In this document: positions 1-38,646 of the stretch, one piece after another
How positions within the stretch are numbered: the stretch's first letter is position 1
Layout: every line of letters starts with the position of its first letter
DNA from: a bacterium
GTDB taxonomy: Bacteria > Oederibacteriota > PGYV01 > Palsa-1178
Assembly: GCA_037138355.1 (NCBI GenBank)
Contig: JBAXIL010000014.1
Location: 1 to 38,646 of the forward strand
Reading direction: 5' to 3'
Length of the DNA: 38,646 nt
The notes under the pieces: model-generated
The model's database searches: none
What the model was told of the DNA's origin: nothing
The model's input: only the letters and a program-made list of their open reading frames with translations
Position numbers and translations under genes: made by a program

Positions 1-1635
1 GGTGAAGCTCTTGATAAAAAAATACCAGTATTGCGCTCTATAGATGCTGTATCAAAACAAGCGCTTAGAGTTTTAAAAGCATTAGGAAATAAAAGTTCAA
101 AACGAGTCATTGCCACTTTAGGGCCAGAACAGGAATATTTTTTAATTGATAAAAAATATTTTGCAGATCGTCTCGACCTTATGTTAACTGGAAGGACACT
201 TTTTGGTGCCCCATCTCCTAAGGGACAAGAACTTGAAGATCAATACTTCGGAGCTCTTAAAGATAAAGTTTCAAATTTTATGACTGACCTTGATCTTGAA
301 TTATGGAAAATGGGAATTGCCTCTAAAACTCGCCATAACGAAGTTGCTCCTGCACAGTTTGAAATGGCTCCAGTTTACGGAACACTCAATCTTGCTGTTG
401 ATCACAATCAACTTGCAATGGAGACAATGCAGAAAGTTGCTATAAGACATGACCTTGTTTGTCTTTTACACGAAAAACCATACGCGGGTGTAAATGGTTC
501 AGGCAAACATAATAACTGGTCACTCTCAACAGATGACGGTTTAAATCTTTTAGAGCCAGGACTTAATCCACATGACAATGCACAATTTTTAATTTTCTTA
601 TCATCTCTAATTACTGCAGTAGATAAACACTCTGATTTATTGAGGGGCTCTGCTGCTACACCGGGCAATGACCATCGTCTCGGAGCAAACGAAGCACCAC
701 CAGCGATTATTTCAATGTTTCTTGGCGATCAGATAACAACAGCTATAACAGCTGTCGCTGAGGGAAGAAAAATTGAAGGTTATAAAAATGCACCTTTGAA
801 AATCGGTGTTGATACCCTTCCACAATTCCCTATTGATAATTCTGACCGTAACAGAACTTCACCTTTTGCTTTTACTGGTAACAAATTCGAGTTCAGAATG
901 GTTGGATCTTCCGCATCAGTTGCTGGTCCAAATATAATATTGAATACTGTTGTTGCTGAAACATTAGATGAATTTGCGACAAGACTTGAAAAATCAAAAG
1001 ATGTAAATGCAGAAATTACAAGTATTCTCAAAGACACTCTAAAAGCACATGGCAAAATAATTTTTAATGGTAATAATTACTCTGAAGAGTGGGTAAAAGA
1101 AGCAGAAAAAAGAGGACTTCCAAATGTTAAAAACACTGTGGATGCGCACAAAGCCTTTACAACCCAGAAATCCAAAGATGTTTTTGCGAAATACGGAGTC
1201 CTTTCAAACGAAGAGCTTCATTCACGATATGAAATCTATATAGAACAATATGCAAAATGCATAAATATTGAAGCAATGACTGCCTTGAAAATGCTTAAAA
1301 CTTTGTACATACCTGCAATAATCGGCTTTACAGACAGTCTTGCTGGTACTGTAGCAAAAGTTAAAGCAGCTGGTTCTTCATCAGATGTTCAGTCTGGGCT
1401 GCTTAAAATGGTTACCACTTTACTTGAGTCAATCGTAACAAAAACCATGAAGCTTGAAACTAATACAGTAAAAGCCCAGGAAACAAATGACACAGTAAAA
1501 AAAGCAGAAACTTATAGAGATAATGTATTTACTGCGCTTGCAGAAGTGAGAAAAGATGTTGACGCCGCAGAAAAAATCATGCCAGCCGGTTTATGGCCTG
1601 TTCCAACATACGCCGATATGCTGTTTAAACTCTAA
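1..1635 (+). CDS. glnN: Glutamine synthetase type III (GlnN-like), 5'-truncated by window edge
   Basis: Frame is open from base 1 ([13 protein letters not shown]...). GSIII motifs [77 protein letters not shown] and C-terminal WPVPTY. Confidence 0.95.
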
Positions 1636-2003: not shown

Positions 2004-2019
2004 TGGCACGATATATGCT
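2004..2019 (+). promoter_or_regulatory. Sigma54 (-24/-12) promoter of the barrel-amtB-glnK operon
   Basis: TGGCACGATATATGCT matches TGGCAC-N5-TTGCW with one mismatch and exact GG-N10-GC spacing. It lies about 50 bp before the ATG of an ammonium-uptake operon. Confidence 0.8.
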
Positions 2020-2070
2020 TTATATATGGTGTAGTCATTAAATAATAAAAACTGAAAAGGAGGTTTTAGA

Positions 2071-2769
2071 ATGAAAAAATTACTAGTTCTTGCTTTATTA
2101 ACAGCAGCAATTTTTATGTCAGCTTTTTCATCAGTTAGTGCAAGTTTGTCTGGTAGTATTTATACGGCTGGTGTGGGAAGATACATTTGGAGAGGTCAGC
2201 TTTTGTCTGACGGTCTTGCCATACAACCAGGGTTCACGCTCAATCTAAATAAATTCTCTTTTGGTTATTGGGGTTCTTATCACGGTTTTGCTGATACCGC
2301 AAATCTCAATGAGTCAGATTACACTTTCAGTTTTACAGATACCGTGCCATATGTAGACATTTTAAGTCTTAAGTCTGGTTTTACAGTTTACACATTTCCA
2401 TATAGTCCACCTTCAGCTAATAACTCAACAGAAGTATTTGGCGGACTTTCTTTAGCTACTTTACTATCTCCAACAGTTACCTTTTATTACGATCCTACAC
2501 TCGGTAAAGGTGGTTATGTTGAAGCAGGAATTTCACAATCACAAGCATTTGGAGATTTCGGAATATCTGGTGGATTAACAGCTGGCTATAATTTTGGTCA
2601 GTGGGGATATACTCCATCTTTTACAGCTTTAGCAGCCACTATTGGTGCAAGTTATTCTTTAGCAGGATTTGTTTTAACACCATCAGTTGTGTTACAGCTT
2701 CCTCTTAACGATCAATACAAAAGTTTTGCTGTAGGTTCATTAGCATTGTCATATAATTTTGGATTATGA
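2071..2769 (+). CDS. Putative outer-membrane beta-barrel (TorF/Gcw_chp-like putative porin)
   Basis: Signal peptide, RYIWRG...AIQPG...GYWGS...ESDY pattern, alternating aromatic beta-strands, C-terminal YNF. RBS AAGGAGG. Confidence 0.7.
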   Translation: MKKLLVLALLTAAIFMSAFSSVSASLSGSIYTAGVGRYIWRGQLLSDGLAIQPGFTLNLNKFSFGYWGSYHGFADTANLNESDYTFSFTDTVPYVDILSLKSGFTVYTFPYSPPSANNSTEVFGGLSLATLLSPTVTFYYDPTLGKGGYVEAGISQSQAFGDFGISGGLTAGYNFGQWGYTPSFTALAATIGASYSLAGFVLTPSVVLQLPLNDQYKSFAVGSLALSYNFGL

Positions 2770-2793
2770 AAAAAACGAATGGAGGTAAGTAAA

Positions 2794-4143
2794 ATGAAAA
2801 AGATTATCTTGTTAGTAATGATGTTAGTAGCACTTCTCGGACTCGCTGGACTGTCAATGGCAAACGATGTAGCAACGACCGTACCTGTTGCTGCTCCAAT
2901 CGCAGCCCCTGCTCTCGCAATCAATGCAGGAGACACAGCTTGGGTACTTATGTCGGCTGCCCTCGTCATGCTCATGACTCCTGGACTGGCTTTCTTTTAT
3001 GGAGGCTTAGTACGCAAAAAGAACATGTTAAGTATTCTTATGCAGTGCATGGTTGCTCTTGCAGTCATCAGTGTGCAGTGGGTATTATACGGCTATTCTC
3101 TTTCCTTTCACCCTGGAGAAGGTTTTTGGGGCGGACTTCACTGGGCTGGTTTACATGGAGTAGGATTTGAACCATACGCAGATTACTCTTTAACTATTCC
3201 TCATCAGGCTTTCATGATATTTCAGGCAATGTTTGCAATAATCACGCCTGCTCTTATCATAGGAGCTTTTGCTGAAAGAATGAAATTCTCATCTTTCGTA
3301 GTTTTCTTACTTGCTTGGGCCACATTTGTATACGATCCACTTTGTCACTGGGTATGGGGCGTTGGCGGATTCTTAAGAAAAATGGGAGCTCTTGATTTTG
3401 CAGGAGGAACTGTAGTTCACATTAACGCAGGTATAGCCGCTATTGTTACTGCTCTATATTTAGGAAAAAGAAAAGGTTTAGATAAAACACCACCGCCTCA
3501 TAACCTTCCACTTTCTGTACTTGGTGCAGGATTGCTTTGGTTTGGCTGGTTTGGTTTCAATGCCGGAAGTGCTCTTGGAGCAAACGGACTTGCAGCAAAT
3601 GCTTTTGTTGTAACTAACACCGCAGCAGCAATGGCTGGTATAACATGGGCAGTAATTGATTGGATAATAATCGGTAAGCCAACAGTGCTTGGCACTATCA
3701 CAGGTGCTGTAGCAGGTCTTGTCGCTATCACTCCTGCCGCTGGATTTGTAGATGTAAACGGCGCTCTTGCTATTGGAATCTTAGTTAGCTTGGGATGCTA
3801 CTTTATGTTAAGCGTAGTAAAACCAAAGCTTGGCTATGATGATTCGCTTGATGCTTTTGGAGTACATGGTATCGGTGGTATAATCGGAGCTCTTGCAACA
3901 GGTTTGTTTGCAACAACAGCAGTAAACTCTGCAGGTGCAAACGGTCTATTTTATGGTAATCCAAAACAGTTTATGATTCAGTTGATGGCAGTGGGAGTAA
4001 CCGTCGGATATTCCTTAGTTATGACATTTGTTATACTCAAAGTGATTGACCTTGTAATGGGAGTTCGAGTCAAAGAAAGAGACGAAGCTATAGGACTCGA
4101 CTTGACTCAGCATCATGAAAGTGCTTACACTTTGATAGAATAA
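2794..4143 (+). CDS. amtB: Ammonium transporter AmtB
   Basis: Motifs MTPGLAFFYGG, FQAMFA, HWVWG, DFAGGTVVH, WFGWFGFNAGS, DDSLDAFGVHG. Start set at ATG 2794 after GGAGG (2781-2785); signal-like N-terminus. Confidence 0.97.
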   Translation: MKKIILLVMMLVALLGLAGLSMANDVATTVPVAAPIAAPALAINAGDTAWVLMSAALVMLMTPGLAFFYGGLVRKKNMLSILMQCMVALAVISVQWVLYGYSLSFHPGEGFWGGLHWAGLHGVGFEPYADYSLTIPHQAFMIFQAMFAIITPALIIGAFAERMKFSSFVVFLLAWATFVYDPLCHWVWGVGGFLRKMGALDFAGGTVVHINAGIAAIVTALYLGKRKGLDKTPPPHNLPLSVLGAGLLWFGWFGFNAGSALGANGLAANAFVVTNTAAAMAGITWAVIDWIIIGKPTVLGTITGAVAGLVAITPAAGFVDVNGALAIGILVSLGCYFMLSVVKPKLGYDDSLDAFGVHGIGGIIGALATGLFATTAVNSAGANGLFYGNPKQFMIQLMAVGVTVGYSLVMTFVILKVIDLVMGVRVKERDEAIGLDLTQHHESAYTLIE

Positions 4144-4224: not shown

Positions 4225-4566
4225 ATGAAACTCGTAATCGCGATCATCCAACCGCACAAATTGGAAGATGTAAAACAAGAACTGTATAAAGCCGAAGTTC
4301 ATCTTCTGACAGTCAATGAAGTGTTAGGTCACGGCAGACAAAAAGGAATTACTGAGGTTTACAGAGGTGTAAAAGAGTCAGGCAACTTGCTCAGAAAGCT
4401 TCGCCTTGAAATCGCAGTAAATGACAACTTTCTTCAGGCAACTATAAATGCTATTCTTAAAGGCGCACAAACTGGAGAGACTGGTGATGGCAAGATATTT
4501 GTAATGCCGATGGAAGAATGCATAAGAATCAGAACTGGAGAAAAAGGAAAAACAGCAATAGGATAA
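4225..4566 (+). CDS. glnK: P-II nitrogen regulatory protein (GlnK-type by linkage to amtB)
   Basis: GHGRQKG, YRG T-loop, TGETGDGKIFV, IRIRTGE. RBS GGAGGT. Confidence 0.93.
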   Translation: MKLVIAIIQPHKLEDVKQELYKAEVHLLTVNEVLGHGRQKGITEVYRGVKESGNLLRKLRLEIAVNDNFLQATINAILKGAQTGETGDGKIFVMPMEECIRIRTGEKGKTAIG

Positions 4567-4685: not shown

Positions 4686-6026
4686 TTAAACTACACCCTG
4701 ATCTATCATTGAATCGGCTACTTTAACAAAACCTGCTATATTCGCACCCATTACATAGTTAGTAGGGTCGCCGTATTCTGTGGCGGCACTTACGCACTGA
4801 TTATGGATTGCGATCATAATATTATGCAGCCTTGTATCAACTTCTTCGCGTGTCCACGAAAGTCTCATGGAGTTCTGCGACATTTCAAGACCTGATGTTG
4901 CAACTCCGCCAGCATTTGCGGCTTTACCTGGGCCATACATAATCTTTTTAGCCAAGTATTGTTCAATAGCTTCAGGAGTAGAAGGCATATTTGCGCCTTC
5001 ACTTATTAATTTGCAACCATTATCAAGTAATAGCTTTGCATTTTTACCGTCAATCTCATTCTGTGTGGCACTTGGGAATGCACAATCACAAGCAATTGCC
5101 CATGGTTTTGCCCCAGGTCTGTACTCACATTTATATTTATCTGCATATTCTTTAATACGACCGCGTTTTACATTTTTTAAATCAAGTACATATGCAAGCT
5201 TTTCTGCATTTATACCGTCTTTATCATATATAGTTCCTTCTGAATCAGAAAGTGAAACAGCCTTACCGCCGAGATGATTTATTTTCTCAACTGTATACTG
5301 TGCTACATTTCCTGAACCTGAAACTACACAAGTCTTTCCTTTAATGGAATCATTTTTTGTTTTAAGCATTTCCTGTGCAAAATATACTGCTCCATAACCA
5401 GTAGCTTCTGGGCGAATCAATGAGCCACCCCAATTTAACGCCTTACCTGTTAATATCCCTGTAAACTCATTACGAATTCTTTTATACTGCCCAAACATAA
5501 AACCAATCTCTCTTCCGCCTACACCAATATCTCCAGCTGGGACATCTGTGTCAGGTCCAATGTGGCGTTGAAGTTCAAGCATAAAAGACTGAATGAAACG
5601 CATAACTTCATTATCAGATTTACCTTTAGGGTCAAAATCAGATCCACCTTTTCCGCCACCCATAGGGAGTGTAGTAAGGGAATTTTTGAAAACCTGTTCA
5701 AATCCAAGGAATTTGAGAATTGAAGCATTTACTGATGGGTGAAGGCGAAGACCGCCTTTGTAAGGACCGATTGCGCTATTAAACTCAAATCTAAAACCAC
5801 GATTTACTTGAACTATATTCTTATCATCAACCCAAGGAACGCGAAAAATAATCTGTCTTTCTGGTTCAACTATACGCTCTAAAATACTTGCCTTCTCATA
5901 CTTTTTATTTCTGTCAACTACTGGGGCAAGTGACTCAAGCACTTCTGTTACCGCCTGCAAAAACTCAGGTTCATTTGCATTGCGTTTCTTAACTGTTTCA
6001 AGAACTTTATTGATATACTCCGACAT
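4686..6026 (-). CDS. gdhA: NADP-type glutamate dehydrogenase
   Basis: GPYKGGLRLHPSV, LPMGGGKGGSDFDPK, DVPAGDIGVGGREIG, RPEATGYG, VSGSGNVA, KAANAGGVATSGLEMSQN. Confidence 0.97.
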   Translation of the reverse strand: MSEYINKVLETVKKRNANEPEFLQAVTEVLESLAPVVDRNKKYEKASILERIVEPERQIIFRVPWVDDKNIVQVNRGFRFEFNSAIGPYKGGLRLHPSVNASILKFLGFEQVFKNSLTTLPMGGGKGGSDFDPKGKSDNEVMRFIQSFMLELQRHIGPDTDVPAGDIGVGGREIGFMFGQYKRIRNEFTGILTGKALNWGGSLIRPEATGYGAVYFAQEMLKTKNDSIKGKTCVVSGSGNVAQYTVEKINHLGGKAVSLSDSEGTIYDKDGINAEKLAYVLDLKNVKRGRIKEYADKYKCEYRPGAKPWAIACDCAFPSATQNEIDGKNAKLLLDNGCKLISEGANMPSTPEAIEQYLAKKIMYGPGKAANAGGVATSGLEMSQNSMRLSWTREEVDTRLHNIMIAIHNQCVSAATEYGDPTNYVMGANIAGFVKVADSMIDQGVV

Positions 6027-6064
6027 ATTTTTCCCCTCCTGCTTCGTATGCGCTTTTATCTTTC

Positions 6065-6144
6065 AAAACGACAAATCTGCCGCCAACACATCAATGTGTC
6101 TGCTATCGTGTATCTTCTGAACACATCAGCGTGCTCAGGCAGAT
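6065..6144 (-). promoter_or_regulatory. gdhA leader: ANTAR-type dual-hairpin RNA with basal helix and overlapping weak terminator
   Basis: Minus strand: CTGAGCAC-GCTGAT-GTGTTCAG and GCAGACAC-ATTGAT-GTGTTGGC, enclosed by ATCTGCC/GGCAGAT. Competing hairpin GGCGGCA-GATT-TGTCGTT followed by TT. Confidence 0.75.
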
Positions 6145-6202
6145 ATTGTTATAAACCTAAAGCACAGCGCTGTGCATTTAAGTTTGCCGACGAAAATTTT
6201 AT

Positions 6203-6979
6203 TTATTTTCCAATTTCCATAGTAAGTATTATTGCTTCCGCTACTTCTTTCATAGACTTTCTTGAATCCATTGATTTTTTATGTATTGATTTATATGCTA
6301 TGTCTTCTGACATTTTAAACTTGCTCATTAATATTCCTTTGGCCCTATCAATGAGTTTTCTTGTTTCAAGTGCTTCTTTCGCCATAACTGTTTCTTCTAA
6401 CAACTTGACATTTTCTATCCCAATGGCAGCTTGATTGGCCACAGACTGTAATATGCGTATTTCACTTTCACTAAAGACATGCTCTTGAGTGGTATAAATA
6501 TTAATTACCCCCATTACATTGTTTCGTAAAATCATCGGAACTGCCAGCATTGATTTAAGCCCTTCCTTAAGTGCTATTTCCTTAAATGCATAACCATTCT
6601 CTTTTGTAACATTTAAAACAGTTACTGGTTTTTTGTCAACAACTGCCCTTCCAGATATTGATTGCCCTACATTAATATTTGGTTTATTTCTATATTCAGT
6701 ACTTAGGCTTTGCGTTGCAATTGATTTAAGTTCCTGTTGATTTTTATCCAGCAACATTATAGAACAAATTTTAGACCCCATCATTTCGGCAGTAAGCGAA
6801 ACCACTATGTGCAATATTTCTTCTAAATATCTTCCAGAAACAATAGATTTACTTATTTCGGTTAAGGTTTCAATTTCTTTTTCTTTTTCCTGTATAATTA
6901 ATTTGAGTCTTGTTATTTCCGAGATACTTTTTGTAGGAACGATTTTTTTTCGTTTTTTTGCGATTTTCTTCTCAATCAT
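6203..6979 (-). CDS. GAF + ANTAR domain RNA-binding regulator
   Basis: N-terminal coiled coil, GAF-like core (CSIMLLD...GQSISGRAV...SMLAVPM...GVINIY...F...LQSVANQAAIGIEN) and C-terminal ANTAR (ALETRKLIDRAKGILM...SEDIAY...SMDSRKSMKEVAEAII). Start set at ATG 6979 after GGGGAG; the ORF track start is 7039. Confidence 0.92.
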   Translation of the reverse strand: MIEKKIAKKRKKIVPTKSISEITRLKLIIQEKEKEIETLTEISKSIVSGRYLEEILHIVVSLTAEMMGSKICSIMLLDKNQQELKSIATQSLSTEYRNKPNINVGQSISGRAVVDKKPVTVLNVTKENGYAFKEIALKEGLKSMLAVPMILRNNVMGVINIYTTQEHVFSESEIRILQSVANQAAIGIENVKLLEETVMAKEALETRKLIDRAKGILMSKFKMSEDIAYKSIHKKSMDSRKSMKEVAEAIILTMEIGK

Positions 6980-7062
6980 GAACGCTCCCCAAAAACAGAA
7001 TATAAAATGCGTGCTATTTCGGCCGACAGAAAAAGCCAAATCTTTATTTATATATCAAAAAG

Positions 7063-7091
7063 ATTATATACCAACACTCAAACATCGTCAA
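7063..7091 (-). promoter_or_regulatory. Sigma70-type promoter of the ANTAR gene
   Basis: TTGACG-17 nt-TATAAT on the minus strand. Confidence 0.8.
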
Positions 7092-7109
7092 GACAATGAA
7101 TTACATATC

Positions 7110-8543
7110 TTAACTTTCCAATTCTTCCAAATATTTAGCTATGGCCTTTGCTGATTTTCTGCCTGCACCCATAGCAGCAATAACTGTTGCAGAGCCAGTT
7201 GTTATGTCGCCTCCAGCATATACTCCAGGGATCGATGTAGCACCTGTTTCAGGATCAACTTCAATATTGCCCCATTTAGTAAGTTTTAACCCAGGAACAT
7301 CAGATGTCAAAAGTTTGTTTGCTTTTGTACCTAAGGCAGGTATTATCGTATCCAGCTCAATTACAAACTCTGAACCAGGAACTGGTATCGGTTTGCGTCT
7401 ACCTGAAGAATCTGGCTCTCCTAACTCCATTTTAATGCACTTTATGCCTTTTACCCAACCATTTTCATCACCAAGTACTTCAACTGGGTTTGTCAATAAA
7501 TTAAATATCACTCCCTCTTCATGAGCTCTTTCTATTTCTTCTTTTCTTGCTGGCATTTCTGCATCCGAGCGTCTATAAATTATGTGTGATTCTTCTACCC
7601 CTGGAAGACGCTTACTCCAACGAGCAGAATCCATTGCCACATTTCCAGCTCCCACAACTGCCACTTTTTTACCGACTCTTACTGGCGTATCGTACTCTGG
7701 GAATAAATATCCTTTCATAGCATTTATTCTTGTAAGATACTCATTTGCTGAATATACACCTTTAAGATTTTCTCCAGGAATGCCAAGAAACATAGGTGTC
7801 CCTGCTCCTACTCCAATAAACACTGCCTTAAAACCTTGTTTTTTTAAATCATCTATTGTATAAGATTTACCAATTACCACATTAAGTTGAAACTCTACGC
7901 CGATTTTTTGCAAGTAATCAACTTCTCTTTGTACTATTGCTTTAGGTAATCTAAATTCAGGAATACCATAAACCAATACGCCGCCAGCTATATGCATAGC
8001 TTCAAAAACTACTGGCGAATATCCCATTTTCACAAGGTCTCCAGCCAAAGTTAAACCAGCTGGACCTGCACCAGCGACAGCAATTTTTATCAGCTTTCCA
8101 TCACGCCCAAGACGCTTAGTGATTACAGTTGCTTCCTGTTTTAAATTAGCAGCTTCCCAATCCGCAGCAAAACGCTCCAAAGAACCTATGTTTATAGGAT
8201 TTTTTGTTTTGAGCATTACACAAGTACTTTCACATTGCTCTTCTTGTGGACATACTCTGCCACACACTGCTGGCAAACTATTATCATTTTTTATAGTGTC
8301 AATTGCCCCTTTAAAATCTCTAACAGCTATTCGTCTTATAAATTCTTTTATATTGATATTAACCGGACAACCTAATATACATGTTGGATTCTTGCACTGA
8401 ATACATCTTTCTGCTTCAGCAACAGCTTCTTCCTCATTGTAACCAAAAGGCACTTCATTAAAATTATTAACTCTTATCTGCGGCTCCTGCTGTCTTACTG
8501 CAACTCTTGGCCTTTTTGCTTTAGGTATTTTATTTTCTTCCAT
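7110..8543 (-). CDS. nfnB: NfnB/SudA-like flavoprotein (often annotated homotetrameric glutamate synthase GltA); large subunit of NfnAB transhydrogenase
   Basis: RCIQCKNPTC...GCPV, CGRVCPQEEQCE, GAGPAG, YGIPEFRLPK, VGAGNVAMD, YRRS. Translationally coupled to the upstream NfnA-like gene. Confidence 0.85.
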   Translation of the reverse strand: MEENKIPKAKRPRVAVRQQEPQIRVNNFNEVPFGYNEEEAVAEAERCIQCKNPTCILGCPVNINIKEFIRRIAVRDFKGAIDTIKNDNSLPAVCGRVCPQEEQCESTCVMLKTKNPINIGSLERFAADWEAANLKQEATVITKRLGRDGKLIKIAVAGAGPAGLTLAGDLVKMGYSPVVFEAMHIAGGVLVYGIPEFRLPKAIVQREVDYLQKIGVEFQLNVVIGKSYTIDDLKKQGFKAVFIGVGAGTPMFLGIPGENLKGVYSANEYLTRINAMKGYLFPEYDTPVRVGKKVAVVGAGNVAMDSARWSKRLPGVEESHIIYRRSDAEMPARKEEIERAHEEGVIFNLLTNPVEVLGDENGWVKGIKCIKMELGEPDSSGRRKPIPVPGSEFVIELDTIIPALGTKANKLLTSDVPGLKLTKWGNIEVDPETGATSIPGVYAGGDITTGSATVIAAMGAGRKSAKAIAKYLEELES

Positions 8544-9390
8544 CTGAGGCCGCCTTTATTCCAGGATTTAAATTACAATTATGATTTAATGAATGTTTTT
8601 CTTCGTCTTTATACGCAGACAATCTGCTCGTGAGCTGTTCAAAATCTACTTTATGTCCATCAAAATCAGGACCATCGACACAAGAAAATTTTACTTCTCC
8701 TCCTACAGTTACCCTACAACCACCACACATTCCTGTCGCATCAACCATCATGGCATTTAAACTCACAATTGTTTTCAAACTATATTTTTTTGTTAAATCA
8801 GAAACAGCTTTCATCATAACTACAGGACCTACTGCTACCACTAAGTCAATCTTATCACCCTTATCTATCATTTGCTGAAGTACATCTGTCACAAAACCTT
8901 TTTGACCATGTGAGCCGTCATTAGTAGCTATTTTCAATTCATCTGAAACTGCTCTCATTTCATCCTCGAGAACCACCATATCTTTTGTCCTATAACCAAT
9001 TATAGATGTGACTTTATTTCCGTCTTGTCTTAACTGCCTGGCGATTGGGTATATAGCAGGTACACCAACACCGCCACCAACTACCACTGTATTGCCATAT
9101 TTTTCAGAGTGAAAATGATGTCCAAAAGGTCCTGCGACAGCAAAGACATCATCCCCTACATTTAGCTTTCCAAGTTTTATTGTAGATAATCCAATTTCCT
9201 GAAATACCATATATAGAATTCCTTTTTCTTTATTCCAATCATAAATAGTTAGAGGAATTCTCTCGCCTTTTTCGTCGGGAATTACAATTATGAAATTACC
9301 TGCTTTTGCGTTAAATGTGACATGCGGAGCTACTACACCTAATAGTTTTATATCTTTTGAAAGGACTTTCTTTTCTACGATTTTATACAC
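8530..9390 (-). CDS. nfnA: NfnA/SudB-like FAD/NAD-binding [2Fe-2S] subunit
   Basis: GERIPLTI, VGGGVG, MVDATGMCGGCRV...SCVDGPDFDG (Asp + 3 Cys cluster motif). GTG start after GGAGG. Confidence 0.88.
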   Translation of the reverse strand: MYKIVEKKVLSKDIKLLGVVAPHVTFNAKAGNFIIVIPDEKGERIPLTIYDWNKEKGILYMVFQEIGLSTIKLGKLNVGDDVFAVAGPFGHHFHSEKYGNTVVVGGGVGVPAIYPIARQLRQDGNKVTSIIGYRTKDMVVLEDEMRAVSDELKIATNDGSHGQKGFVTDVLQQMIDKGDKIDLVVAVGPVVMMKAVSDLTKKYSLKTIVSLNAMMVDATGMCGGCRVTVGGEVKFSCVDGPDFDGHKVDFEQLTSRLSAYKDEEKHSLNHNCNLNPGIKAASDGRK

Positions 9391-9416
9391 TTTTCCCTCC
9401 TACATTTTTGTGATAT

Positions 9417-9448
9417 AAAAACGACTTACGACATCGGTGGCGTAAGCC
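9417..9448 (-). terminator. Intrinsic terminator/attenuator between gltD and nfnA, carrying an ANTAR-like ACCGAT hexaloop
   Basis: Minus strand GGCTTACGCC-ACCGAT-GTCGTAAGTC followed by GTTTTTAT. Confidence 0.75.
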
Positions 9449-9453
9449 CAACC

Positions 9454-10887
9454 CTACTTGCTTTTTGAAGCCAAATACTCAGTTATTCCGTCTGCAACTT
9501 TTCTACCCTCTGCAATTGCCCAAACTATTAATGAGGGACCTCTGGATACATCACCTGCAGCAAAAACACCTTTAACAGTTGTCTCAAGAGATTTTGCATC
9601 TCTAATAATATTTCCGCGCTCATCAAGCTTTACTGCTAATTTTTCAAGCAAACCTTCTTTTACAGGATTAGTAAAACCCATAGAAAAAATTACAAGATCA
9701 ACATCAATATCAAAAGCTGAACCTTCAACTTCTTTCATTGAAGGCCTGCTGCTTGATTCTGTTTTTACCCATTCAACTTTTGCGCATTTTACTTTTTTTA
9801 TAATTCCATTTTCACCAGCAAACTCTTTTGTTGTAACATTCCATTTTCTATCAGAACCCTCTTCATGACTTGAAGTGGTTTTAAAAACAAATGGATATTT
9901 TGGCCACGGCTGATCAATAGGCCTATCCCTTGATGGTTCAGGTAATATTTCTATCTGCATAACACATTTAGCGCCTTGCCTATTAGCCGTTCCGACACAA
10001 TCTGCCCCTGTATCACCGCCACCAATAACCAATACACTTTTACCTTTTGCATCAATAATTTCAGCTTCTATTTTATCTCCAGCTACTTTACGGTTGGATT
10101 GTGTGAGATAATCAACAGCTTGATAAATTCCCTTTAACTGCCTTCCCGGTATATTCATATCTCTTGGTACCCGACATCCAACAGCGACACAAACTGCATC
10201 ATATTCCTTTATTAATTCCTCAGTCGCGAAATTTATACCTACATTAATACAAGTTTTAAAACGAATTCCTTCTTCTTGCCAAACAGACAACCTTCGATCA
10301 AGAATAGATTTTTCAAGTTTGAAATCAGGTATGCCATATCTCATAAAACCACCGAGACGATCTTCTTTTTCAAAGACTGTAACAGTATGTCCAGCCATAT
10401 TCAAAAACGCAGCTGTTGAAAGACCTGCAGGGCCAGAACCAATAACCGCCACTTTTTTTCCAGTGCGAAGTATTCCTCTTTCTGGTTTTACATACCCTTC
10501 TTTAAAAGCCTTTTCTATTATTGCCAACTCGTTTTCTCTTATGGTCACGGGATAATCGTTTATCCCCAAAACACATGCCGATTCACATGGAGCAGGACAT
10601 ACGCGACCAGTAACTTCCGGAAGGACATTAGTAGCAGATAACAAAATGTATGCCCCTTCCCACCTATCACGATATGCATGATCATTCCACTCTGGCACAT
10701 AGTTACCAAGCGGACATGCCCAGTTACAAAAGTCAGTACCACAATCCATACATCTTGATGCTTGTTCTTTTGCCTTTTCATCCGTTCTCGGAACTGCCAC
10801 TGGCTTAAAATCTTTTACTCTATCGCAAACAGGCCTGTATGACATAGTTTCTCTCTTTACTTTTAAAAAACCAGTTGGATTTCCCAC
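9454..10887 (-). CDS. gltD: Glutamate synthase small (beta) subunit
   Basis: (M)GNPTGF start, RCMDCG...CPLGN, TGRVCPAPCE, GSGPAG, YGIPDFKLEK, IGGGDTGADC, SLIVWAIAEGR. Start set at GTG 10887, just after the gltB stop and GGAGG. Confidence 0.95.
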   Translation of the reverse strand: MGNPTGFLKVKRETMSYRPVCDRVKDFKPVAVPRTDEKAKEQASRCMDCGTDFCNWACPLGNYVPEWNDHAYRDRWEGAYILLSATNVLPEVTGRVCPAPCESACVLGINDYPVTIRENELAIIEKAFKEGYVKPERGILRTGKKVAVIGSGPAGLSTAAFLNMAGHTVTVFEKEDRLGGFMRYGIPDFKLEKSILDRRLSVWQEEGIRFKTCINVGINFATEELIKEYDAVCVAVGCRVPRDMNIPGRQLKGIYQAVDYLTQSNRKVAGDKIEAEIIDAKGKSVLVIGGGDTGADCVGTANRQGAKCVMQIEILPEPSRDRPIDQPWPKYPFVFKTTSSHEEGSDRKWNVTTKEFAGENGIIKKVKCAKVEWVKTESSSRPSMKEVEGSAFDIDVDLVIFSMGFTNPVKEGLLEKLAVKLDERGNIIRDAKSLETTVKGVFAAGDVSRGPSLIVWAIAEGRKVADGITEYLASKSK

Positions 10888-10888
10888 T

Positions 10889-13800
10889 TTAGGCCTCCGT
10901 CGTTTCAAGGGACTGCTGTTTTTTCGCAAGGTCCATTATTTGTTTATATTCAATTGGAATTACTTTAACAAAGTTTTTAATACTATAATCAAAATTTTCC
11001 AACAACTCTGAAGCTTTCCCGCTGGAAGTATATTTTATGTGATTTTCAAGCATTGTCTTTACAGTTCTAATATCATCTGCGTCTAATCCTGATAACTCCA
11101 CCATATCTTTATTACATTTGTCAGGAAATACTCTTGCTTCATCATACACATAAGCAATTCCGCCAGACATACCCGCTGCAAAGTTTCTTCCTGTCTGTCC
11201 TAACACCACTACTCTTCCACCTGTCATATATTCGCAACCATGGTCACCTAAACCTTCTACCACAGCATAAAGTCCAGAGTTTCTTATACAAAATCTTTCT
11301 CCAGCCATTCCACGAATATAGGCCTCGCCTGATATAGCTCCGTAAAAAGCCGTATTACCTATAATTACATTTTCTGTTGAATTATACATTGCTTTTTTAA
11401 ATGGATATATTGAAATACGGCCACCAGAAATTCCTTTTCCCACATAATCATTTGCAAGACCTTCAAGCTCAAAATTAATTCCTTTAGCAAGAAATGCACC
11501 AAAACTTTGTCCTGCAGTACCTTTAAACTTACAGTGTATTGTATTTTCAGGTAAATATTGTTCTCCGTATTTTTTGCATACCTCTCCTGATAACATAGCA
11601 CCACATGAACGATCTGTATTCTTAATAACTTTTTCTATTTTAACCACTATTTTATTATCTAATGCTGGTTTACTTTCCAATATCAGTTCCCGATCAAGAA
11701 CTTTATCTATTTCATGATCCTGCTTTGTTACACAGTATGTTGCTGTATCTGCCTTTACCTCTGGTTTATACAGAATCTTTGAGAAATCTATTCTCTTTGC
11801 CTTCCATGGAATTATTTCTTTATCTACCTCAAGCAAATCAACTCTACCGACCAAATCATTAACAGTTTTAATTCCAAGTTCAGCCATTATTTCTCTTAAA
11901 TCCTGTGCAATAAATTTCATAAAGTTTACTACATATTCTGGTTTGCCAGCAAAACGCTTTTGTAAAAGCTCGTCTTGCGTAGCAACACCTAAAGAACAAT
12001 TATTTAAATGACAATGTCTAAGCATTACACAACCTAAAGTAATAAGTACGATAGTTCCAAAACCAAACTCTTCCGCTCCTAAACATGCTGCCACAGCCAA
12101 ATCGCGGCCAGTTCTCATTTGTCCATCTGTTTGTAAACGAACTCTTCCCCGCAAATTATTCATGACAAGAGTTTGATGTGTTTCTGAAATGCCTAATTCC
12201 CACGGCAAACCTGCATGCATAATAGAGGTTTTAGGAGAAGCACCTGTTCCACCATCTCCACCTGATATCAGTATCATATCTGCATGAGCTTTGGCAACAC
12301 CTGCCGCAACTGTGCCTACTCCAGCTTCCGACACAAGTTTTACACTTATTCTGGCTCTTGGATTAGCATTCTTCAAATCAAAGATAAGCTGTTTTAAATC
12401 TTCAATAGAATAAATATCATGATGTGGTGGCGGTGATATCAAAGTAACTCCAGGGGTTGTATATCTCGTTCTGGCAATTATTTCGCTTACTTTATGACCA
12501 GGCAATTGTCCACCTTCTCCTGGTTTTGCACCTTGAGAAATTTTTATTTGTATTTCATCAGCATTAGTTAAATAATTTATATTTACACCAAACCTACCAG
12601 AAGCAACCTGCTTTATAGCACTGCGCGCAAGATCACCATTTGGATAAGGAGTAAATCTTATTGGATCCTCTCCGCCTTCTCCAGTATTTGATTTTCCACC
12701 AAGTCTATTCATGGCTATTGCCATTGCCTCATGAGCAGCGCCACTGATAGAACCAAAACTCATTGCTCCTACCACAAATCTTTTTACAATTGAATCAACA
12801 GACTCAACTTCAGATAACAAAACAGCTTTCTGTTTTTTAAACTTAAGCAAGCTTCTTAATGTCACAGGTTGATTTGCCTGATTATTTATAATTGCAGCAA
12901 ACTCCTTAAATCTTTTTTCGTCATTATTCCTTACGGCGTCCTGTATCGCAGCAATAGATTCAGGATTCCATAGATGTGTTTCCCCGTCTTTTTTCCACTG
13001 ATATAATCCACCAGTAGGCAATATCTTTTCTGCGGCACCTGTTTTACAGAATGATTCCGTATGAGTCATTATTACTTCTTTTGCTATTTCTTCAAAACCC
13101 ACTCCACCTATGCGTGAGACAGCACCAGTAAAACATCTGTCTATCACTTCATCGTGAATACCAAAGGCCTCAAAAATCTGCGCGCCTCTGTAGCTTTGTA
13201 ATGTGGATATACCCATTTTTGCCATAACTTTGCGTATTCCCTTATGGCAAGTTTTCCTGTAATTATAAACAGCCTTTTCATAACCGCAGTCTATTTCACC
13301 TTTATCTGTCATATATCTTATTGCTTCATACACCAAATAAGGATTGATAATATCAACTCCAAAACCGAGCAGAACACAAAAATGATGAACTTCTCTTGGT
13401 TCTCCTGATTCAAGTATTAATCCTACGCTTGTCCTTAAAGACTTTCTAACAAGCTCTTGATGAACAGCTCCTGAAGCCAAAAGTGAAGGTATCGCAGTAT
13501 ATTCATCACTAACGCCTTTATCACTTAAAATTATATATGAATAACCTTCTTTTATTGCCTTCACTGATTCTTCACATACCCTATCTAAAGCACTAACAAA
13601 ATCACCTGTATCTCCAGGCATAAGTAATAAAGAAATAGTTTTAGTTCTAAATCCATTTACTGCTATATGTTTTATTTTCTCAAGTTCTTCATTTGTAACA
13701 ATAGGCTCTCTCACCTGTAGCTTATGTGTATGCTGAGCTGTTTCTTCAAAAAGATTTTTCTGCGGACCTATAAAGCTCCGCAAGCTCATTACTATTTCCT

Positions 13801-15427
13801 CTCTTTCAGAATCGATAGGCGGATTTGTAACCTGAGCAAAGAGCTGCTTGAAATATGTAAAAAGTAATTTTGGTCTTATTGAAAGCACTGCGTGAGGCGT
13901 ATCATTACCCATAGAACCAAGCGGATCCTTAGCTTCTCCTGCCATAGGTTTCAAAATATCTTTAAGGTCTTCTCTTGTGTATCCAAAAACTTTAAGCTGA
14001 TCCATGAGTCCTTCGGGATTGGAAGGTTTCATATCAGGAACCGGAAGATCTTCTATGTATATTAGCTGTTCTTTTCTCCATTGCCTATATGGCGCGCGCC
14101 TTGATAAATCTTCTTTGACTTCCGAATCATTTATTATTCTGTTTTTTGCAGTGTCTATATAAAATATTTTGCCAGGCTCTAATCTTCCCGACTTATTTAT
14201 ATTGGAAGGAGGTATGTCAAGAACTCCAACCTCTGATGACATGACCACATAACCATCATTTGTTATTATATATCTTGCTGGTCTGAGTCCATTTCTATCA
14301 AGTACTGCCCCTATTCTTATCCCATCCGTAAAAGCAAGTGCCGCAGGACCGTCCCAAGGTTCCATGAAGCAAGCATGATACTTATAAAAACTTCTTATAG
14401 AATTAGGTAAAAGATCATTATGTTCCCAAGCTTCTGGGACTAACATCATCATAGCGTGCGGCATACTTCTTCCTGCTTTAGTTAGCATTTCAAAAGCATT
14501 ATCTATGGAAGCCGAATCACTTTGTTTTTCATCGCGAATAGCGGGTTTCATGTGTTTAGTATCAGTACCAAAAAGAGCACTATTGAAAAGTCCTTCTCTC
14601 GCTTTCATCCAGTTTAAGTTTCCTCTTAAAGTATTAATCTCGCCATTGTGAGCCAAATAACGGAATGGCTGAGCTAAATCCCATGTAGGAAAAGTGTTTG
14701 TAGAATAACGGGAATGAACAAGGCAAATTGCGCTTTTAATATCTTCGTCTTTTAAATCTGTAAAGAAATTAGCTATCTCTGCTGGCATCATAAGACCTTT
14801 ATATATGATAACTCTGCTTGATAAATTAGTAACATAAAATTGTGCTTTTTGTTTTAGATTAGAATCTCTTACAACATTTTCAACTTTTTTTCTTATTATA
14901 TAAAGCGCGCGTTCAAAAGCTTCTCTATCATTTATATTCTCTGCTTTCTTTATAAAAAGGTGTTCAAACCTTGGCTCGCTTGCCCTTGCTACAGGACCTA
15001 TTACATTATTATCAACTGGCACTTCTCTCCAACCCAAAAGAGTTTGTCCTTGTTCATCAATCGCTTTTTTTATTTCATTTTTTACTACCTTGCATTCATT
15101 TTCATCTTGTGGTAAAAAAACTAAACCTATACCATATTCACCTTCATCAGGAAGGTTTATGCCAATATTTTTTGATACCTTTATAAAAAAATCATGTGGA
15201 ATTTGTATAAGAATCCCCGCTCCATCACCGGTTTTTGAATCAGCACCAGTTGCCCCACGATGAGTCATGCGCTCAAGTATCTGCATGCCATCAAGAACGA
15301 GCTTATTTGTCTTATCGCCTTTTATGTTTGCGATAAAACCTACACCACAGGAATCTTTTTCAAATGAAGGATCATATAACCCTTTTTTCATTGGCATATA
15401 ACCTTCCATAGAGCTTACAGTTTCCAT
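10889..15427 (-). CDS. gltB: Glutamate synthase large (alpha) subunit
   Basis: EKDSCGVGF (catalytic Cys), HSRYSTNTFP, EPWDGPA, KQLFAQVTNPPID, IKQVASGRFGV, QGAKPGEGGQLPG, [3Fe-4S] motif CVMLRHCHLNNC, C-terminal GXGXG repeats. Confidence 0.98.
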   Translation of the reverse strand: METVSSMEGYMPMKKGLYDPSFEKDSCGVGFIANIKGDKTNKLVLDGMQILERMTHRGATGADSKTGDGAGILIQIPHDFFIKVSKNIGINLPDEGEYGIGLVFLPQDENECKVVKNEIKKAIDEQGQTLLGWREVPVDNNVIGPVARASEPRFEHLFIKKAENINDREAFERALYIIRKKVENVVRDSNLKQKAQFYVTNLSSRVIIYKGLMMPAEIANFFTDLKDEDIKSAICLVHSRYSTNTFPTWDLAQPFRYLAHNGEINTLRGNLNWMKAREGLFNSALFGTDTKHMKPAIRDEKQSDSASIDNAFEMLTKAGRSMPHAMMMLVPEAWEHNDLLPNSIRSFYKYHACFMEPWDGPAALAFTDGIRIGAVLDRNGLRPARYIITNDGYVVMSSEVGVLDIPPSNINKSGRLEPGKIFYIDTAKNRIINDSEVKEDLSRRAPYRQWRKEQLIYIEDLPVPDMKPSNPEGLMDQLKVFGYTREDLKDILKPMAGEAKDPLGSMGNDTPHAVLSIRPKLLFTYFKQLFAQVTNPPIDSEREEIVMSLRSFIGPQKNLFEETAQHTHKLQVREPIVTNEELEKIKHIAVNGFRTKTISLLLMPGDTGDFVSALDRVCEESVKAIKEGYSYIILSDKGVSDEYTAIPSLLASGAVHQELVRKSLRTSVGLILESGEPREVHHFCVLLGFGVDIINPYLVYEAIRYMTDKGEIDCGYEKAVYNYRKTCHKGIRKVMAKMGISTLQSYRGAQIFEAFGIHDEVIDRCFTGAVSRIGGVGFEEIAKEVIMTHTESFCKTGAAEKILPTGGLYQWKKDGETHLWNPESIAAIQDAVRNNDEKRFKEFAAIINNQANQPVTLRSLLKFKKQKAVLLSEVESVDSIVKRFVVGAMSFGSISGAAHEAMAIAMNRLGGKSNTGEGGEDPIRFTPYPNGDLARSAIKQVASGRFGVNINYLTNADEIQIKISQGAKPGEGGQLPGHKVSEIIARTRYTTPGVTLISPPPHHDIYSIEDLKQLIFDLKNANPRARISVKLVSEAGVGTVAAGVAKAHADMILISGGDGGTGASPKTSIMHAGLPWELGISETHQTLVMNNLRGRVRLQTDGQMRTGRDLAVAACLGAEEFGFGTIVLITLGCVMLRHCHLNNCSLGVATQDELLQKRFAGKPEYVVNFMKFIAQDLREIMAELGIKTVNDLVGRVDLLEVDKEIIPWKAKRIDFSKILYKPEVKADTATYCVTKQDHEIDKVLDRELILESKPALDNKIVVKIEKVIKNTDRSCGAMLSGEVCKKYGEQYLPENTIHCKFKGTAGQSFGAFLAKGINFELEGLANDYVGKGISGGRISIYPFKKAMYNSTENVIIGNTAFYGAISGEAYIRGMAGERFCIRNSGLYAVVEGLGDHGCEYMTGGRVVVLGQTGRNFAAGMSGGIAYVYDEARVFPDKCNKDMVELSGLDADDIRTVKTMLENHIKYTSSGKASELLENFDYSIKNFVKVIPIEYKQIMDLAKKQQSLETTEA

Positions 15428-15518
15428 ACAAAACTCCTTTTATATTATTAATTTTCAAATTAAGTTTTAAGCTTTATAAATTTTTAGCCAAATAACAATC
15501 TATCTATAGGCATACTTA

Positions 15519-15592
15519 TAGCAACTATACAACCTTGAGATTTGTCGCATCGTAGCGACATATTAGGCAGGCATCGACGCCAACTGTTGCTA
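15519..15592 (-). promoter_or_regulatory. gltB leader: ANTAR-type dual-hairpin RNA with basal helix
   Basis: Minus strand: GGC-GTCGAT-GCC, 9-nt linker, TGTCGC-TACGAT-GCGACA, enclosed by TAGCAAC/GTTGCTA, immediately after the promoter. Confidence 0.75.
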
Positions 15593-15596
15593 AATA

Positions 15597-15625
15597 ACTA
15601 TACAAAATATGTGATTAAAAGTCAA
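15597..15625 (-). promoter_or_regulatory. Sigma70-type promoter of the gltB operon
   Basis: TTGACT-17 nt-TATAGT on the minus strand. Confidence 0.75.
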
Positions 15626-38217: not shown

Positions 38218-38268
38218 TTTGAAACCTCCAAGTTTTTTTTCTTACTAACTTAAACATCTCAGTTCAAG

Positions 38269-38646
38269 TCATTCTTCCTCATTCAAATCCATTTTTCCAA
38301 CTTTATAAACACTAAAAAATTTTTCTTTTTCGCGTTCATAATTATTGCTAAGTATGGCCTCTTTTATTTTTCCCATCAAGTTTATCATAAAATGTATATT
38401 GTGTAAAGTAGTGAGCCTCATACCAAGTATCTCGTGAACATTGAACAAATGTCTTATATATGCTCGCGAAAATGTTCTACACGCATAGCAGCTACAATCA
38501 GCATCAATAGGTCTGAAATCTTCCTTATACTCGCCATTTCTTATTTTAACCAAACCTTCCGCCGAATAAGCTGTACCATTTCTTGCTATTCTCGTAGGAA
38601 AAACACAATCAAACATATCAACACCTTTTTCAACTGAATACCATAT
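38269..38646 (-). CDS. tgt: tRNA-guanine transglycosylase, C-terminal part (5'-truncated by window edge)
   Basis: GVDMFDCVFPTR.ARNG, zinc site CSCYAC, SRAYIRHL, TLHN. Upstream of yajC. Confidence 0.96.
   Translation of the reverse strand: MWYSVEKGVDMFDCVFPTRIARNGTAYSAEGLVKIRNGEYKEDFRPIDADCSCYACRTFSRAYIRHLFNVHEILGMRLTTLHNIHFMINLMGKIKEAILSNNYEREKEKFFSVYKVGKMDLNEEE

Follow-up and report, generated by a model that had tools for sequence, protein, structure and literature searches.

Control of nitrogen genes by RNA-binding ANTAR proteins is already established. Ramesh (2012; PMC3369931) predicted ANTAR substrates on Desulfotomaculum glutamate synthase genes and a general link to nitrogen genes, in particular those for glutamate synthase, glutamine synthetase (GS), PII, and ammonium transporters; Geobacter GnfR binds a GGC-AANGGC-GCC site (PMC2995071); and nitR in Clostridium has been cited (PMC4676874). 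Here we analyse a 38,646-nucleotide (nt) stretch of DNA from an uncultured freshwater bacterium (hereafter, the window), in which a gene for a GAF-ANTAR protein lies between gdhA, encoding glutamate dehydrogenase (GDH), and the gltB–gltD operon, encoding glutamate synthase (GOGAT). We consider it likely that this protein is a one-component RNA-binding regulator of two dual-hexaloop elements, one at the 5′ end of the gdhA mRNA and one at the 5′ end of the gltB–gltD mRNA, that a further hairpin after gltD is a terminator, and that glnA and amtB have sigma-54-like promoters instead.

Recognition in the described systems centres on the hexaloop. In the structure of EutV with RNA, the only base-specific contact is made to a G at loop position 4 (G4), and the minimal site is a single hexaloop (PMC8934654). 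An A at loop position 1 (A1) mattered for both EutV and NasR, and A1 mutants show weaker EutV binding and induction (PMC3369931). The linker between the stems of ANTAR targets measures 2–25 nt, and one point variation per element is accepted (PMC8164766). Terminators accompany only ~30% of predicted ANTAR substrates (PMC3369931). One-component sensors of the GAF-ANTAR type are uncharacterised according to the accessible portions of PMC3369931 and of a 2025 review (PMC12591593).

RESULTS

Two dual-hexaloop elements in the leaders of gdhA and gltB

The window is contig C14 of a 91-contig draft genome (1.66 Mb, 35% G+C, 94% complete). An earlier inspection of the letters alone (the sequence-only reading) had proposed an ANTAR regulon comprising five hairpins in the leaders of gdhA, gltB, and gltD/nfnA, with six-base loops closed by a C-G pair and ending G4-A5-U6, on stems of differing sequence. 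All five hairpins are present as written. Four of them, two per leader, make up the gdhA and gltB elements (Table 1); the part of the proposal that concerns Nfn is not supported (see below).

Each element comprises two tandem hairpins, P1 and P2. In the gdhA leader the P1–P2 linker is 16 nt and the element lies ~45 nt upstream of the start codon; in the gltB leader the corresponding values are 9 nt and ~90 nt. Both leaders have two stems of at least 3 bp, six-base loops, G4, a short linker, an ANTAR gene, and conservation in relatives, all as expected of a dual-hexaloop ANTAR target; they depart from the expectation in A at position 1, which only one of the four loops has, and in overlap of P2 with a terminator.

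Judging from promoter-like sites, both elements would sit at the extreme 5′ end of their transcripts. Specifically, the candidate gltB promoter puts the transcript start at ~15591, at the foot of the element, and promoter-like sites also directly precede the gltB element in the sister genus G004 and in the relatives G003, G008, and G016. For gdhA, exact-match metatranscriptome contigs (two runs of one sample, with DNA carry-over uncontrolled) span the leader into the gene, at 5054–6147 and at 5724–6182, the latter terminating in adapter letters. The leader and gdhA may be joined in RNA, and the contig ends hint weakly at transcript 5′ ends close to the predicted start, near 6147, and near 6182. 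The contigs leave most of 7400–13600 uncovered, and the uncovered parts are uninformative.

Between the ANTAR stop codon and the gdhA junction lies a long hairpin, P0, whose tip can be read as C-AGCGCU-G, with A1 and G4. P0 could be a third ANTAR-type hexaloop, the terminator of the regulator gene, or a DNA operator. G004 has the same palindromic tip (CACAGCGCUGUG) on a lower stem of other sequence.

Tandem pairs and covariance model

Because hairpins with a GAU loop are common genome-wide, a lone one carries little weight: the genome has 79, and among the 64 loop endings GAU comes 29th, which is no enrichment. Tandem C-NNNGAU-G pairs number three in the genome, of which two are the gdhA and gltB leaders. 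With combined stems of at least 9 bp, two tandem pairs are observed, compared with a mean of 0.17 and a maximum of 1 in 12 block shuffles. A generic tandem-hexaloop scan returned 25 pairs in the genome, none convincing besides the two leaders. A motif, TTCGTCGG, seen near gdhA, near glnA, and in some relatives' leaders was dropped, having 15 occurrences genome-wide in mixed contexts.

Rfam shows no family at gathering level in the window and none at E ≤10 in the two leaders. Because Rfam holds no matching family, relatives were used for testing. A covariance model, R2, was built from an alignment (A7) of 18 elements of relatives, none from this genome. On this genome R2 ranks the gdhA leader first (24.8 bits, E 0.036); within the window, with filters off, the gltB leader comes second (16.9 bits). 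An earlier model, R1, built from five sequences including the gdhA leader of the window, proved too narrow, giving the gltB leader 9.7 bits, and was superseded by R2; the MAFFT alignments A1, A5, and A6, in which the hairpins were misaligned, were kept out of the models. Other R1 and R2 matches in the genome, scoring below the two leaders, are chance-like; matches on contigs C27 and C2 were read as coding sequence. Between tgt and yajC, at 38222–38271 on the minus strand, R2 gives a weak dual-hairpin match (11.9 bits, loops UGAGAU and UUGGAG), probably by chance.

Conservation and co-occurrence with the ANTAR gene

Dual hexaloops stand right after the regulator orthologue, and are followed by gdhA, in five relatives: G004, G003, G011, G008, and G016. 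The downstream gdhA is confirmed by Pfam in the first two and by N-terminal likeness only in the other three. The gltB leaders of G004 and G003 have P1 loops AAUGAU and AAAGAU and P2 loops UUAGAG and UUUGAU, respectively, and the gltB leaders of G008 and G016 have less regular versions of the dual element. Both elements are thus retained in orthologous leaders of relatives.

We examined 80 loci around regulator orthologues, drawn from Nitrospirota, Omnitrophota, Syntrophorhabdus-like, and other metagenome-assembled genomes (MAGs). At E ≤0.5, 38 of the 39 R2 matches lie on the strand of the ANTAR gene. The 33 open reading frames (ORFs) downstream of elements comprise 12 CN_hydrolase/NAD_synthase proteins, which we read as glutamine-dependent NAD synthetase, 3 type III GS, 2 gdhA, 2 glutamate synthase, 1 ammonium transporter, 1 porin, 1 GAF-ANTAR, and 11 without a Pfam match. 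The Nitrospirota and Syntrophorhabdus-like MAGs most commonly have a GAF-ANTAR gene, then a dual hexaloop with a terminator, then a CN_hydrolase/NAD_synthase gene (for example, L087:1146–1200 and L082:11305–11359).

Over 41 genomes, R2 gives 12 matches at E ≤0.1, with this genome falling under the threshold at the stricter filters of that run. Nine matches are intergenic and precede nitrogen-related genes, five being training sequences and four new (G014:C83, G009:C46, G019:C68, and G027:C1:1040492); three lie within long ORFs (G002, G006, and G014:C101). In five members of the same family (G001, G002, G005, G006, and G007), a search that does recover the window's own ANTAR domain found none, and no gdhA match was found. 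Three gltB leaders of ANTAR-less relatives are readable: a P1-like hairpin is present in two (loops GAUGAU and GAUGAA) and a P2 hexaloop in none. The pattern of co-occurrence is consistent with a dual element dependent on the regulator.

Loop positions in related elements

Loop statistics were taken from 36 distinct related elements (72 loops), of which 24 had not been used for training. Overall, 64/72 loops have A at position 1, a count in which variant loops are under-represented because R2 favours A1. In P1 loops this position is A in 34/36 and G in 2/36; in P2 loops it is A in 30/36, U in 5/36, and G in 1/36. A U at position 1 of the gltB P2 loop is common to this genome, G004, and G003. 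Position 4 is G in 71/72 related loops and in all four loops of this genome. Position 5 is A in 48/72 and G in 18/72, and position 6 is C in 42/72 and U in 16/72. Positions 5 and 6 vary, so that the claim of a fixed GAU fails among the relatives; on these loop sequences GAU is a local habit and no family rule.

The GAF-ANTAR regulator

The GAF-ANTAR gene lies inside the cluster, as the sequence-only reading had it. Its product has a Pfam GAF_2 domain (8.7e-23) and an ANTAR domain (2e-20), the PF03861 match scoring 72.8–75.9 bits against a curated cut-off of 27.3. By profile search, this is the single ANTAR domain in the whole genome, and its gene sits between both targets. In an alignment with EutV, the regulator keeps the residue at the RNA-contact positions Y164, M172, and R175 and has H, D, and S in place of R168, N173, and R177. 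Orthologues are widespread among relatives, the nearest named one (81% identity) being in a candidate division FCPU426 MAG, and G004 and this genome have the same sequence in the ANTAR helix region.

The nearest solved structures to the GAF domain include the GAF domains of a cyclic GMP phosphodiesterase and of PtsP, an enzyme of the nitrogen phosphotransferase system. The PtsP GAF domain presumably responds to glutamine and 2-oxoglutarate, which provides a lead on the ligand only. A literature search found no paper on a GAF-ANTAR protein controlling gdhA or gltB.

A basal helix closes both elements

The sequence-only reading had a basal helix closing the hairpins into a junction. The 14 nt before P1 were folded against the 32 nt after P2, and the duplex energy was compared with that of 200 shuffles. 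Both leaders pass: the helices have energies of −9.5 kcal/mol (gdhA) and −9.7 kcal/mol (gltB), each matched by 2.5% of shuffled flanks. A level reached by ≤10% of shuffles is attained by 9/11 leaders in this order, compared with 2/24 in other phyla. The basal strands are wholly different in sequence between genera of the order, and the junction is closed in independent folds of the gdhA leaders of this genome, G011, and G008.

Leaders in other phyla have the classical arrangement, in which a sequence complementary to P2 is followed by U runs, and so does G027, from another order of the same phylum. Because of the contrast between this order and other phyla, comparison of the folds suggests that in this clade the closing helix took the place of the P2-overlapping terminator.

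Extent of the regulon

The fifth hairpin starts a few bases after the gltD stop codon. The register that gives loop ACCGAU carries a C·U mismatch beneath its closing pair; at minimum energy the hairpin adopts another register, with an 8-bp stem and a 10-nt loop, followed by GUUUUUAU. A stable stem directly after a stop codon and a U run are features of an intrinsic terminator; a simple terminator scan misses the hairpin, the loop being >8 nt. R2 gives no match at E ≤10 at this position. In G004, other genes lie between gltD and nfnA, the terminator-like region in this interval is a different one, nfnA has its own promoter-like site, and no counterpart of the fifth hairpin is present. We read the hairpin as the gltD terminator. 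Its inclusion in the regulon is given up, since it is not in a 5′ leader, is absent from G004, and is unscored by R2, and membership of Nfn is not shown.

Nor is the expected presence of the motif in the GS leader supported. At the glnA 5′ end (contig C20 ~540–556, minus strand), a sigma-54-like sequence, TGGCAT-N5-TTGCT, precedes the start codon by ~45 nt, and no dual element was found (best R2 score, 2.3 bits). The type III GS gene is split over two contig ends (window 1–1635, plus strand; C20 of the same draft, 1–552, minus strand); judging from the two pieces, it is the assembly that is broken here, and not the gene. A similar sigma-54-like site, at 2004–2020 (plus strand), and no dual element are found at the operon formed by ORF 2071–2769, amtB, and the PII gene. 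The ORF that heads this operon encodes 232 amino acids, begins like a signal peptide, and is without a Pfam match; since porin genes stand beside ANTAR elements elsewhere (L078), its product may, by analogy, be an outer-membrane channel.

The sigma-54-like pattern, TGGCAY-N5-WTGCT followed by a TATATA-rich stretch, has 21 matches in the genome, at least 9 of which share an extended form, before varied genes, one of them starting like DnaK. As far as the 94%-complete draft shows, the ANTAR set comprises gdhA and gltB–gltD. For annotation, this means that GDH and GOGAT are controlled differently from GS and AmtB, whose genes are preceded by sigma-54-like promoters. Separately, a ~60-nt repeat (GGACTATAGGCTTCGTCGGCAT ... 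CCTCCTCGCAATGAC), met during the motif count, occurs on three contigs (C5:22683, C9:47658, and C19:24808).

Table 1. Genes, predicted RNA elements, and candidate promoters of the nitrogen cluster, in window coordinates
Feature	Position	Strand	Details
Type III glutamine synthetase gene, 3′ part	1–1635	+	
ORF without Pfam match	2071–2769	+	
amtB	2779–4143	+	
PII gene	4225–4566	+	
gdhA, glutamate dehydrogenase, predicted target	4686–6026	−	Pfam ELFV_dehydrog
gdhA leader element, predicted three-way junction	6071–6149	−	minimum-energy and centroid folds
gdhA basal helix	6139–6149 paired with 6071–6080	−	z = −2.1
gdhA P2	6085–6100	−	loop AUUGAU, 5-bp stem
gdhA P1	6117–6138	−	loop GCUGAU, 8-bp stem
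P0, long hairpin between ANTAR stop and junction	6152–6184	−	followed by U-rich stretch
GAF-ANTAR gene	6203–7039	−	Pfam
GAF-ANTAR start codon	7039 (TTG of listed ORF); ~6979 (ATG)	−	ATG likelier
Candidate promoter of GAF-ANTAR gene	7063–7091	−	sigma-70-like TTGACG-17-TATAAT; 11/12 consensus, best in scanned region; consensus match only
NfnB/GltD-like gene	7110–8543	−	
NfnA-like gene	8530–9390	−	
Terminator-like hairpin and U run after gltD	9415–9448 (hairpin 9423–9448)	−	
gltB–gltD operon	9454–15427	−	predicted target operon; Pfam GATase_2, Glu_synthase, GXGXG, Fer4_20, Pyr_redox_2
gltD	9454–10929	−	
gltB	10889–15427	−	Pfam GATase_2, Glu_synthase, GXGXG
gltB leader element	15519–15592	−	R2 model and fold
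gltB basal helix	15586–15592 paired with 15519–15525	−	z = −2.7
gltB P2	15543–15560	−	loop UACGAU, perfect 6-bp stem
gltB P1	15570–15581	−	loop GUCGAU, 3-bp stem
Candidate promoter of gltB	15597–15625	−	sigma-70-like TTGACT-17-TATAGT; 10/12 consensus

DISCUSSION

Several points weigh against control of both targets by the GAF-ANTAR protein. Canonical A1 is present in only one of the four loops (G and A in gdhA; G and U in gltB). The gltB element alone is not significant genome-wide, a coding-region match on C27 scoring 17.3 bits (E 1.5). A P1-like hairpin persists at gltB in relatives in which no ANTAR gene was found, so that P1 may be a relic or serve some other function. A terminator scan found no terminator-like site after either element, overlap of P2 with a terminator was not found, and no alternative fold sequestering the Shine-Dalgarno sequence is shared among the leaders folded. 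Finally, the junction is the minimum-energy fold without protein, and in these models the leader RNA alone does not look switch-like. Shine-Dalgarno sequestration as a general rule was dropped: pairing between the 5′ basal strand and the Shine-Dalgarno region is seen in the minimum-energy fold of G004, but not in those of the window and the other relatives.

In the mechanism that we envisage, the GAF domain would sense a nitrogen-status metabolite, and a regulator dimer would dock on C-G-closed hexaloops having G4. With no terminator overlapping P2, classical competition between hairpin and terminator is probably not the output here. Our leading guess is that docking on a pre-folded 5′ platform sets translation or mRNA stability, the main alternative being antitermination at weak downstream hairpins. 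The full form of this proposal, in which a terminator-less, pre-folded three- or four-way junction at the mRNA 5′ ends allows a GAF-ANTAR dimer sensing glutamine/2-oxoglutarate to set translation or mRNA lifetime and not read-through, is tentative, and we regard it as possible rather than probable.

Classical antitermination, in which weak or unconventional downstream terminators would be prevented from forming while the protein holds the junction, appears unlikely. Candidate hairpins can be drawn in both leaders, a small hairpin with a U run at ~6064–6083 and an AU-rich hairpin at ~15504–15520 followed by a U-rich stretch, and in both the 5′ half overlaps the 3′ strand of the basal helix; relatives in other phyla have clear P2-overlapping terminators. 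However, the candidate hairpins have only 4–6 weak pairs, are far below the junction in stability, and are missed by the terminator scan, and the U-rich tail is not kept in G004, G003, G011, or G008.

We doubt that the gdhA element is the sole working target and the gltB pair a decaying or repurposed remnant. The gltB element has a low score (16.9 bits), a P1 stem of only 3 bp, and no A1 in either loop; ANTAR-less relatives keep a very similar P1 hairpin (GAUGAU, GAUGAA); and the ANTAR gene and gdhA come and go together as a two-gene module. Against a remnant, the gltB P2 has a perfect 6-bp stem with G4, its hexaloop is found only in the ANTAR-bearing genomes (this one, G004, and G003), U at position 1 of P2 recurs in 5/36 related elements, and a basal helix is present.

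There is little probability that the regulator has an altered recognition code, reading G4-A5-U6 with position 1 free, as the sequence-only reading proposed in its variant target motif. All four loops of this genome end in GAU, three of the four lack A1, and the close relatives G004, G003, and G017 likewise favour GAU or GAC. However, the ANTAR helix is identical in G004, where A1 is present in the gdhA loops and in the P1 loop of gltB, and comparison of these sequences does not point to an altered RNA-reading surface; among related loops, positions 5 and 6 are variable while A1 holds in 64/72; and, as G4 is the only base-specific EutV contact (PMC8934654), tolerance at position 1 needs no new code. 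Of the variant motif, there remain the relaxed position 1 in this genome's own loops and the basal helix. These sites may simply be weaker ANTAR targets.

It is highly improbable that the two leaders are unrelated structures or a metabolite riboswitch, resembling ANTAR targets by chance: Rfam has no matching family and the junction folds without protein, but the motif tracks the ANTAR gene across phyla, with 38/39 matches on its strand, the dual element is absent where no ANTAR gene was found, and loop conservation is restricted to the positions expected for ANTAR.

The novelty first claimed for this configuration was overstated, since ANTAR nitrogen regulons have been published (PMC3369931, PMC2995071). 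What this clade adds is an altered expression platform, and the phrase "three-way junction" occurs in none of the ANTAR RNA papers listed in the literature collection searched. If the proposed junction mechanism is true, it would constitute a second, structurally distinct mode of ANTAR action, with any base tolerated at loop position 1. The system offers a compact test case, with one regulator, two targets, and RNA folded shut without a competing terminator, and ANTAR action without a terminator becomes directly testable in this clade.

Comparison with known ANTAR systems

The gdhA and gltB elements resemble the leaders recognised in EutV/eut of Enterococcus faecalis, NasR/nasF, and AmiR/amiE in having two tandem short stems, hexaloops, G4, conserved closing pairs, and a short linker, and they resemble known ANTAR nitrogen regulons in having the cognate ANTAR gene nearby and nitrogen-assimilation targets including glutamate synthase. 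They differ from the EutV, NasR, and AmiR RNAs in that three of four loops lack A1, P2 does not overlap a terminator, and a basal-helix junction is present at the mRNA 5′ end. The sensor differs as well, being a GAF domain here and a receiver, NIT, or AmiC-partnered domain in the known systems.

GnfK/GnfR of Geobacter sulfurreducens also includes a nitrogen ANTAR regulator, and the GnfR site, CAGGCAANGGCGCC, a GGC-hexaloop-GCC hairpin, resembles the gltB P1 (PMC2995071). In contrast to the GAF-ANTAR protein, GnfR belongs to the response regulators, is phosphorylated, and acts by overriding terminators at nif, glnK, and amtB; Geobacter gdhA is governed by GnfM at a sigma-54 promoter and not by the ANTAR protein (PMC2995071). 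Mycobacterial ANTAR targets, like those described here, are without a terminator and accept a single loop deviation, and their output is translational (PMC8164766, PMC12591593). The mycobacterial targets overlap the ribosome-binding site or start codon (PMC8164766, PMC12591593), whereas the elements of this genome lie upstream of the start codon, at ~45 nt in gdhA and ~90 nt in gltB.

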